Shown: positions 1 to 4,474 of the stretch, piece by piece | Layout of the letters: every line of letters begins with the position of its first letter | How positions within the stretch are numbered: the stretch's first letter is position 1 | Virus record (IMG/VR): IMGVR_UViG_2740892268_000007 | Length of the DNA: 4,474 bases | Strand: one strand, 5' to 3' | Source: a virus | Lineage: Duplodnaviria; Heunggongvirae; Uroviricota; Caudoviricetes | Notes under the pieces: generated by a model | Seen by the model: the letters and a program-made list of their open reading frames with translations, nothing else | Told to the model about the DNA's origin: nothing | Database searches by the model: none | Translations under genes and position numbers: made by a program

Positions 1-39
1 CCCGGCAGCCTTCAGGGAAAAATATCATCAGATGGCTGC

Positions 40-393
40 TTAAAAAAAGAACAAATGGTAGTGTCCGCTATTGCCAGTACACCTCAATTGCTCTGCGGCT
101 TCGCTCAGAGCTGGCGTATGTTCCCGGCCTACTGATTCACACAGGTAATCAACGAAACCGGACACCAGTTTTCGTTCGCGAGGCGTGATCGCCCCACCGA
201 CCGGAGTCCAGTAATCGAAACCCAGTTGCAGGAGTTTGAAAAAACGCTTGTGGAATGCGTAGTTACACACACGCTTAAAGTCTGCGTGTATCCACTCACC
301 TATTTTGATTTGATGCAGAAAATCGCAACTCTCCGGCGTCGCCGGGAGAAGTAATCCGGAAGAGGTTTGTTTGACCAGTTGTATATGTGCCAT
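40..393 (-). CDS. Hypothetical small phage protein (117 aa from ATG; track ORF 40..435 uses an upstream TTG)
   Basis: Open frame on the minus strand ending at TAA 39-37. ATG at 393-391 is preceded by GGAG with a 7-nt spacer (minus strand ccGGAGaaagccgATG), which I prefer over the TTG at 435-433 that overlaps the upstream stop. Four Cys residues; no family recognised. Last gene of the operon within the window. Confidence 0.6.
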   Translation of the reverse strand: MAHIQLVKQTSSGLLLPATPESCDFLHQIKIGEWIHADFKRVCNYAFHKRFFKLLQLGFDYWTPVGGAITPRERKLVSGFVDYLCESVGREHTPALSEAAEQLRCTGNSGHYHLFFF

Positions 394-3000: not shown

Positions 3001-3792
3001 CTACTTAACAACCCTCGAATGGCTAACATTCGGACGCCAGCTCTCCCAGTTAAAATTCACCCAGCGCCCGCCGTTCATGACCATGCGATCCATCACCCGC
3101 TCGCCGAGCAATGTTTTCATCACCTCATAGTTCAGGTTTGTCAGCATCCCCACGCTGCGCATCGACGCTGTCCGGCGATCAACAATCTGGTGCAGCACCA
3201 CCTGCTCGTTTTTCGTCTCGCGCTGAATGCCAATTTCATCAAGAACCAGCAGATCCACTTCGCACAGCTCCCGCAAAAATTTTTCGCCTGACTGCCCGTC
3301 GTCATAGCTGGCGTGCAGGGCGCTCATAACATCAGCCACGGTAACCACAATCACTGTCTGACCGTCTTTCAGCAGGCGATTCCCGATAGCTGCCGCTAAG
3401 TGATTCTTCCCGGTACCAGGTTTTCCGCTGAACGCAAAATTTGTACACCCGGTCATCAGTTCATCGGCGATGGATTTCGCCTGGCTTAACGCGTATCGCT
3501 GGCCGTCGTTCTGNNNNNNNNNNNNNNNNNNNNNNNNNNNNNNNNNNNNNNNNNNNNNNNNNNNNNNNNNNNNNNNNNNNNNNNNNNNNNNNNNNNNNNN
3601 NNNNNNNNNNNNNNNNNNNNNNNNNNNNNNNNNNNNNNNNNNNNNNNNNNNNNNNNNNNNNNNNNNNNNNNNNNNNNNNNNNNNNNNNNNNNNNNNNNNN
3701 NNNNNNNNNNNNNNNNNNNNNNNNNNNNNNNNNNNNNNNNNNNNNNNNNNNNNNNNNNNNNNNNNNNNNNNNNNNNNNNNNNNNNNNNNNNN
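3001..3792 (-). CDS. DnaC/IstB-like AAA+ helicase loader (phage replication protein, YdaV/P-like); true start hidden in N block 3514-3792
   Basis: Visible part has Walker A (FSGKPGTGKNHLAAA), Walker B (DLLVLDEIG) and a C-terminal region typical of DnaC-like prophage proteins; stop TAG 3003-3001. A DnaC-like protein of roughly 245 aa would start inside the mask. The track ORF 3001..3972 (TTG) fuses it to the upstream initiator C-terminal domain through the Ns. Confidence 0.8.
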   Translation of the reverse strand, partial: XXXXXXXXXXXXXXXXXXXXXXXXXXXXXXXXXXXXXXXXXXXXXXXXXXXXXXXXXXXXXXXXXXXXXXXXXXXXXXXXXXXXXXXXXXXXXQNDGQRYALSQAKSIADELMTGCTNFAFSGKPGTGKNHLAAAIGNRLLKDGQTVIVVTVADVMSALHASYDDGQSGEKFLRELCEVDLLVLDEIGIQRETKNEQVVLHQIVDRRTASMRSVGMLTNLNYEVMKTLLGERVMDRMVMNGGRWVNFNWESWRPNVSHSRVVK

Positions 3793-4141
3793 CGCGAACA
3801 GGCCCTGGTATTCATTGGCGATGCTGTGTCGAATCACCTGCTCAGGTGTAAAACCCTGCTGACGGAATTTTTCCAGTTCCCGTATCGCCCCGTTAGCGCC
3901 CTGCTCCGTTCGAATCGGTTTTCGCAATGCCTGTCTGAACCGGACCCACTCATGCCAGAGTGTTTCCGGCAACCAATCGGGCAGCTCAATAGCCTCCGGC
4001 TCGAATTTTTTAGACGCTCGTTTTTGGCGAGGGGGAGATCAGTATTTAGATCTTCCTCTTCCTCTTCCTCTGGTAACGCTTTTTGATCCGTTTGTGTAAC
4101 GCTGGCAGCGTTACCTTTTCGTTTCAGTTCGCGTATTTTTG
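3793..4141 (-). pseudogene. Frameshifted middle and C-terminal portion of the phage replication-initiator gene (acidic linker plus helicase-loader-interaction domain)
   Basis: After the 4142..4405 ORF stops, coding continues without any start codon in the -1 frame (KKRAVTNERVTKIRELKRKGNAASVTQTDQKALPEEEEEEDLNTDLPLAK...), then again in the next -1 frame (KKFEPEAIELPDWLPETLWHEWVRFRQALRKPIRTEQGANGAIRELEKFRQQGFTPEQVIRHSIANEYQGLFA) into the N block. Frame changes coincide with T8 (4167-4174) and T6 (4006-4011) or T5 (4021-4025). This is either a true pseudogene or a homopolymer miscall. Confidence 0.5.
4051..4070. repeat. (TCTTCC)3 hexanucleotide tandem repeat, encoding EEEEEE on the minus strand
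   Basis: Plus strand tcttcc tcttcc tcttcc tc at 4051-4070; minus-strand codons gag gaa gag gaa gag gaa within the initiator linker. Confidence 0.7.
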
Positions 4142-4405
4142 TTACTCGCTCGTTTGTAACCGCCCGTTTTTTTTAGAGCTTTTTCCGTTATGACGTTCAA
4201 AGTTAGGTAGAGAAAGCCCTCCGTCATTTTCGACCAGCCATCCAACCTGAATTAACGCATCAGCAAAACCAGACATAAAAGTGATGCGATCTATTGCACT
4301 TTTTGTAACGCCGCGAGCGTTACAATCTGCATTACCGTCTATCATTTGTTGATCCGCCCATGCCCAGAAGCGAATAACCTGAGGTAGCCTGAGTTTAACG
4401 GACAC
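4142..4405 (-). CDS. N-terminal fragment of the phage replication initiator (replisome-organizer / YdaU-like DNA-binding domain), likely 5'-truncated
   Basis: 87-aa ORF (GTG 4405-4403, stop TAA 4144-4142) ending ...LSLPNFERHNGKSSKK, which resembles the lambda-O-type ...PQNEGKSPKK boundary between DNA-binding domain and linker. The first 9 codons (4380-4405) are encoded by what looks like an IS terminus, so the real N-terminus is probably missing. Confidence 0.5.
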   Translation of the reverse strand: MSVKLRLPQVIRFWAWADQQMIDGNADCNARGVTKSAIDRITFMSGFADALIQVGWLVENDGGLSLPNFERHNGKSSKKNGRLQTSE

Positions 4406-4474
4406 TCCTTCCTGAAATAGAATGGCATCAGAAGGAGCTAATAATGAGCAGAAAAACCCAACGTTACTCTAAAG
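4380..4474 (+). mobile_element. Probable IS3-family insertion sequence, left terminus and start of orfA (continues beyond window)
   Basis: Begins with 5'-TGAGGTAGCC (IS3-family elements characteristically begin 5'-TG). About 64 bp later there is AAGGAG, a 6-nt spacer and ATG (4444-4446) opening a plus-strand ORF MSRKTQRYSK..., which matches the N-terminal pattern of IS3-family OrfA proteins (basic stretch, then R-Y/F-S, usually followed by EFK). The orientation is divergent from, and abutting, the phage operon. Confidence 0.45.
4444..4474 (+). CDS. Partial CDS (first 10 codons): putative IS3-family transposase OrfA N-terminus
   Basis: ATG at 4444 with a near-ideal SD (AAGGAG, 6-nt spacer); reads MSRKTQRYSK and runs off the window. 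Identity inferred from 10 residues plus context only. Confidence 0.4.
   Translation, partial: MSRKTQRYSK

Follow-up and report, generated by a model that had tools for sequence, protein, structure and literature searches.

The analysed stretch of DNA (the window; 4,474 nt of the tailed-phage record IMGVR_UViG_2740892268_000007) contains the 3′ part of a defective prophage's replication-initiator gene on the minus strand, which abuts the left end of an insertion sequence, referred to here as copy A of IS600, on the plus strand. The features of this region are as follows.

3793–4379, minus strand: 3′ part of the initiator gene, codons 36 to about 233, a pseudogene in three frames; the remainder lies under the run of N at 3514–3792
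4030–4043 (approximate): loss of 10 bp, TCCCCCTAAA, which the intact homolog has between two TCCCCCT repeats
4142–4405, minus strand: chimeric 87-aa ORF, with a GTG and first nine codons from the IS600 terminus, then initiator codons 36–105, then out-of-frame codons
4167–4174: T8 run (A8 on the gene strand), which is A6 in the intact homolog; a +2 frameshift
4377–4379: one copy of the 3-bp target-site duplication, ACC on the plus strand and GGT on the gene strand
4380–4474, plus strand: left end of IS600 copy A, comprising an imperfect terminal inverted repeat with 5′-TG, a leader, a Shine-Dalgarno sequence and the first 10 orfA codons plus one base
4380–4406, plus strand: left terminal inverted repeat (IRL) of IS600, about 27 bp, as delimited by aligning one end of the reference copy with the other
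4395–4423, plus strand: promoter-like TTAACG-17-TAGAAT facing orfA, a consensus match only
4432–4437, plus strand: Shine-Dalgarno sequence of orfA, AAGGAG, 6 nt before the ATG, as read from the sequence
4444–4474, plus strand: start of orfA (MSRKTQRYSK...), with the ATG at 4444; the window ends within the gene

Over its last 95 bases, the window is identical at 95 of 95 positions to the left end of IS600, a member of the IS3 family, and can be aligned base for base with a reference copy of that element (L002:2501-2595). Among complete E. coli genomes, 3298 records match this segment, 3139 of them at 99% identity or better (E 1e-41), and RefSeq annotates the matched positions as ‘IS3-like element IS600 family transposase’. 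Judged by these alignments, the likeness is far beyond chance; the name IS600 follows the RefSeq annotation of the element. The sequence TGAGGTAGCC begins at 4380, with the terminal TG at 4380–4381, and 64 nt separate this tip from the ATG at 4444. In the reference copy, the two ends agree at 19 of 27 positions and have the tips TGAGGT and ACCTCA. The peptide MSRKTQRYSK corresponds to residues 1–10 of the 100-aa OrfA of the full element. Upstream of it, TTAACG-17-TAGAAT is the sole promoter-like site in 4100–4474, where 0.5 such sites are expected by chance, and is a possible candidate for the transposase promoter. A first-pass annotation, made from the letters of the window, had proposed an IS3-type left end at 4380 that opens an OrfA gene; this reading is borne out, and all of its coordinates are correct (4380 for the start, AAGGAG, ATG at 4444, GTG at 4405, 38 bp between the two starts and 64 nt from tip to ATG).

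The same plus-strand ORF could in principle encode something other than a transposase, such as a phage repressor divergent from the operon, with its likeness to an insertion sequence being fortuitous. The chance of this is practically nil. All 95 bases are 100% identical to IS600, the ORF continues as a 100-aa OrfA with an HTH_Tnp_1 domain in loci identical to the window, and the real repressor/cro pair lies beyond the element. No support for a repressor at 4444 was found, and the idea was rejected on account of the identity to OrfA.

Homology to uninterrupted prophage initiator genes ends exactly at 4379/4380, as expected from the first-pass proposal that the element sits inside the 5′ end of the initiator gene. 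With positions 3795–4474 as the query, 667 E. coli genomes match only the first 586 bases, up to window position 4380, and none of the complete E. coli genomes covers both parts, the best coverage (86%) being that of the phage part only. An uninterrupted homolog of 262 aa (in locus L001), named ‘phage replication initiator YdaU family protein’ in RefSeq, can be followed in the window as far as ...GCGAATAACC (4379). From T4380 onward, the match is to a complete IS600 that sits in ninF (L002:2501-3764, 1264 bp, CGC/CGC flanks), and the T at 4380 is compatible with both the phage and the IS600 sequence. The intact initiator gene extends 104–105 nt further in the 5′ direction, with its ATG start codon 105 nt before the break. 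The N-terminal region of the initiator is indeed shortened in the window, and intact homologs do not start at the GTG at 4405, which lies inside the element.

The junction itself is found in Shigella sonnei. The three unmasked segments of the window are 100% identical to two S. sonnei chromosomal loci (L003, GCA_000815825.1, and L004). An exact look-up of the chimeric 87-aa protein in an assembly collection returned 481 blocks, mostly on contigs of 2–5 kb, with 14 blocks having contigs above 1 Mb. An exact scan of species-representative genomes with a 31-base junction pattern gave no match, presumably because S. sonnei has no separate representative there.

The window ends 95 bases into the element; the full element and its far side were read in eight related loci. 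A complete IS600 of 1264 bp is present in six of the eight, and the copy in L003 (L003:8763-10026) is identical to the reference copy at 1261 of 1264 positions. Its genes are orfA (100 aa) and, in the −1 frame, orfB (272 aa), and it has an A AAA AAG slippery site at IS position 316, where a −1 slip would yield a 385-aa fusion in the full copy, in agreement with the ‘programmed frameshift’ annotation of IS600 in RefSeq. OrfA of the full copy matches PF01527 HTH_Tnp_1 (E 1.5e-20). OrfB matches PF00665 rve (E 8.7e-26) as well as rve_3, rve_2 and HTH_21, and scores 334 bits against NCBIfam NF033516 ‘IS3 family transposase’ (cutoff 160). The right end reads ...ACACCTCA (...CCTCA) in L002, in L003 and in a second IS600 copy at window 1–86. 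The full orfA/orfB pair with its frameshift site and the right inverted repeat ending in CA, both anticipated by the first-pass annotation, are therefore present.

So is the short duplication that it had predicted. In L003, the boundaries of the element read ...CATTAGGGAAGGT joined to TGAGGTGTACTGG... and ...GGCTACCTCA joined to GGTTATTCGC..., and GGT stands on both sides of the element in L003, L005, L006, L007, L009 and L010. The uninterrupted gene (...GGGAAGGTTATTCGC...) has a single GGT; thus, a 3-bp target was duplicated. Beyond the element in L003 lie the initiator ATG and the first 35 codons (105 nt), a 5′ fragment that has been called as a 41-aa ORF running 6 codons into the element; this product occurs on 344 contigs, all named S. 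sonnei. Further upstream are a YdaT-like gene, a P22_Cro-like gene and a divergent HTH_3 repressor gene. Since the 35 codons missing from the window are kept on the far side, the gene is interrupted and not deleted. The first-pass statement that the element truncated the initiator gene consequently holds as to interruption and fails as to truncation. On this comparison of loci, the arrangement is that of a simple transposition that split the gene without loss of target sequence. As a separate observation, the YdaT-like gene (L003:8273-8578) encodes 101 aa in S. sonnei and 140 aa in L001 (L001:3275-3697) and L008, and may be another shortened gene of this prophage.

Taken together, IS600 almost certainly transposed into a lambdoid/Rac-like prophage of an S. 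sonnei ancestor, between codons 35 and 36 of the initiator gene, duplicating GGT. IS3-family elements typically transpose by a copy-out/paste-in route via a circular intermediate, and insertion here would have followed the same route. The element lies antisense to the early-right operon of the phage, with its left end (transposase promoter region, Shine-Dalgarno sequence and orfA start) abutting the 3′ part of the initiator gene.

The other end of the window also belongs to an IS600. A second copy (copy B; L003:14407-15670), oriented like copy A, has its right end at positions 1–86. This copy cuts a DUF1367 gene after about nt 307 (window 87–393). It is flanked by AAT and GTT, with no duplication, and in S. 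sonnei chromosomes it borders on its other side an integrase fragment next to modC; this combination marks it as the endpoint of a rearrangement or deletion. With an IS600 at either end, the window is an inter-IS600 segment, and this accounts for the recovery of the region mostly as 2–5 kb contigs (an IS600-bounded piece of about 4.5 kb) in short-read assemblies. In two of the loci, the far side of copy A has other contents. In L008:7176-10264 (GCA_001248565.1, CXFB01000014.1), a Rac-type ydaU (DUF1376) and ydaV are followed directly by the insertion sequence, and in L004:7723-10264 another IS fragment lies beyond it, with the cro/repressor region missing. These different far sides suggest recombination between IS600 copies or between prophages.

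Accordingly, the 4379/4380 junction in the source genome might now be the endpoint of an IS600-mediated rearrangement or deletion that moved or removed the initiator 5′ end and the cro/repressor region. L004 and L008 share an identical junction (682 of 682 positions with the window) and have an IS fragment and a Rac-type ydaV, respectively, on the far side, and copy B, lacking a duplication and standing next to an integrase fragment, indicates that such rearrangements did occur in this prophage. This is nevertheless unlikely for the source genome, given the simple-insertion arrangement with its GGT duplication in six of eight loci and the 41-aa far-side product on 344 contigs; even under rearrangement, the junction would have arisen from the same simple insertion.

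The presence of an IS600 right end at 1–86 and a left end at 4380–4474, in the same orientation, also allows the two copies to be viewed as a composite transposon that moved a 4.3-kb segment (loader, DUF977, QueH, hok and rem) as a unit. This is most improbable. Copy A stands within one contiguous gene and has a perfect duplication of its own, so it inserted alone; the outer flanks of the supposed composite (GGT and GTT) are unmatched, as are those of copy B (AAT and GTT). The segment moreover occupies the same chromosomal place by modC in seven of eight loci, the eighth, L008, having only the junction and the ydaV part in another prophage context. The composite transposon was rejected on these flank sequences, and no IS600-bounded segment with an outer 3-bp duplication was seen at an unrelated site.

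Insertion of copy A by itself is not the only lesion of the initiator gene. When the intact 262-aa homolog is aligned by tblastn, residues 33–105 fall in frame −1, 104–162 in frame −3 and 152–233 in frame −2, a shift through three different frames caused by the A8 run and the 10-bp deletion. The deletion at about 4030–4043 is common to all S. sonnei loci examined. Owing to the +2 frameshift and the 10-bp deletion, the remnant is a pseudogene regardless of the insertion sequence, and on the alignment the two indels are unrelated to it. In addition, a (GAAGAG)n tract at window 4051–4071 encodes the acidic linker of the initiator. The window, L003 and the intact E. coli homolog have three units, L009 has six and L010 seven; this is a hexanucleotide length polymorphism within the pseudogene among S. 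sonnei assemblies.

Assignment of the gene as an initiator follows its PHROG and RefSeq labels, with origin binding and initiation as predicted functions. The intact homolog (L001:2409-3197) matches phrog_2509 ‘replication initiation protein’ over residues 1–262 against 1–277 of 277 (E 3.9e-89) and has no Pfam or NCBIfam match, even at E<=10. In particular, PF07120 DUF1376, the N-terminal domain of Rac YdaU, is absent from it at E<=10, whereas the Rac-type protein of L008 matches DUF1376 with E 2.7e-26. The C-terminal 124 aa of the initiator are 81% identical to this Rac-type YdaU, and the N-terminal approximately 140 aa are unrelated to YdaU and fall in phrog_2509. By these comparisons the initiator is a mosaic, and the RefSeq name ‘YdaU family’ applies to its C-terminal half only. 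Gene order in L001 is ydaT, initiator and ydaV (ATP-binding), and L003 has the same order with the insertion sequence inside the initiator; the gene directly downstream of the initiator encodes a DnaC/IstB-like loader (PF01695/PF00308).

Two runs of N interrupt the window, at 980–1234 (255 nt) and 3514–3792 (279 nt), and are 36 and 51 nt shorter, respectively, than their L003 counterparts. The first corresponds to L003 13223–13513, most of a hok/gef gene, and the second to 10614–10943, which includes the end of the initiator and the beginning of ydaV. The masking may not preserve length, or else the source differs from L003 there.

A by-product of the insertion is the 87-aa ORF that begins at the GTG at 4405, 38 bp from the ATG at 4444. 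As the first-pass annotation had noted, its start and first nine codons lie within the insertion sequence: MSVKLRLPQ is encoded by the IS600 terminus and occurs in every IS600 copy, which makes the ORF an artefact of the insertion. Against phrog_2509, it aligns with profile positions 34–102 only (E 9e-37), keeping 70 initiator residues. The product occurs on 492 contigs under the name S. sonnei ‘bacteriophage protein’. It might be argued that the ORF is a genuine gene, expressed from the IS end and encoding an initiator fragment with a remodelled N terminus, given that gene callers have annotated it in hundreds of assemblies and that those 70 residues of the N-terminal domain are retained. There is very little likelihood of this. 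In addition to the origin of its start codon, the only SD-like motif available to the GTG, AAGGAG, overlaps it, leaving zero spacing; a promoter scan of 4100–4474 gave no outward-facing candidate on the minus strand; and the ORF ends at a frameshift-induced stop, without the C-terminal half that is 81% identical to Rac YdaU. The 87-aa ORF is most plausibly a mis-annotation brought about by the insertion.

As for the consequences of the insertion of IS600 into the initiator gene, 1264 bp of antisense element now separate the cro-side genes from the remainder of the operon, and the initiator frame is broken. Initiator function would be abolished, translation of the 5′ fragment stopping 6 codons into the element. 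The downstream genes (DnaC-like loader, DUF977, QueH, hok and rem) would be uncoupled from the cro-side promoter, which could help to immobilise an already decaying prophage. That the operon was cut off from its early promoter, as also supposed in the first-pass annotation, is a reasonable inference. Terminator-like sites on the operon strand of the element show no excess over shuffled sequences, so that any polarity would have its origin in untranslated-RNA (Rho-type) effects. In the promoter and terminator scans, the promoter-like site facing orfA was the sole feature to exceed what shuffled sequences would give.

A more far-reaching idea is that the insertion was a selected, lineage-fixed event that locked the prophage remnant by killing the initiator while keeping QueH, hok and rem, and that the two direct IS600 copies render the 4.3-kb segment excisable or amplifiable by IS–IS recombination. 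The wide occurrence of the junction is the sole observation in its favour, and the idea is considered very unlikely.

A third IS600 copy in L003 (L003:6380-7091) consists of only the first 712 nt, and an adjoining gene for a 389-aa IS3-family transposase appears to interrupt it. The IS load of the L003 prophage comprises three IS600 copies, another IS3-family element, an IS110-family element and an insertion sequence in the lysis region. Within the window, the minus strand at 1316–2002 carries a 228-aa ORF, called as a 221-aa gene in L003, that matches PF02677 QueH (epoxyqueuosine reductase family). This gene sits between an unannotated 118-aa gene and hok in the prophage and is queuosine-pathway phage cargo.

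For practical purposes, the 87-aa and 41-aa ‘bacteriophage proteins’ are two halves of one IS-split pseudogene, each extending a few codons into the element, and should be annotated as such. The junction could further serve as an S. sonnei lineage marker. Beyond correct annotation, the importance of the insertion is small: it is a further case of prophage decay brought about by IS600 in Shigella. Both the element itself and the way in which it inserted and acted are textbook, and the site is already present, though poorly annotated, in hundreds of public S. sonnei assemblies. A literature search returned nothing specific to IS600 at the initiator locus.

The interrupted gene can be compared with known replication modules. 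Lambdoid initiators such as lambda O combine a variable origin-binding half with a conserved loader-binding half, and by analogy the mosaic described here follows the pattern expected for them. The Rac YdaU/YdaV module likewise consists of a ydaT-like gene, an initiator and a DnaC-like loader, and shares the C-terminal 124 aa (81%) of the initiator. Unlike Rac YdaU, which has a DUF1376 N-terminal domain, the interrupted initiator lacks DUF1376 and belongs to phrog_2509.

IS600 is one of five insertion sequences (IS1, IS2, IS4, IS600 and IS911) that have expanded in all Shigella species, where IS insertions are a main source of gene inactivation and IS600 is a main cause of pseudogenes (Hawkey et al., 2020; PMC7373316). 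The word ‘prophage’ has no occurrence in the main text of that study. The insertion described here is an instance of the same pseudogenisation process, found in hundreds of S. sonnei assemblies. Compared with the known IS600 of Shigella and E. coli, copy A has the same ends (TGAGGT...ACCTCA), orfA/orfB layout, A AAA AAG motif and 3-bp duplication, the duplicated triplet being GGT here and CGC for the reference copy in ninF. Copy A thus differs from known IS600 only in its insertion site, a prophage initiator gene.
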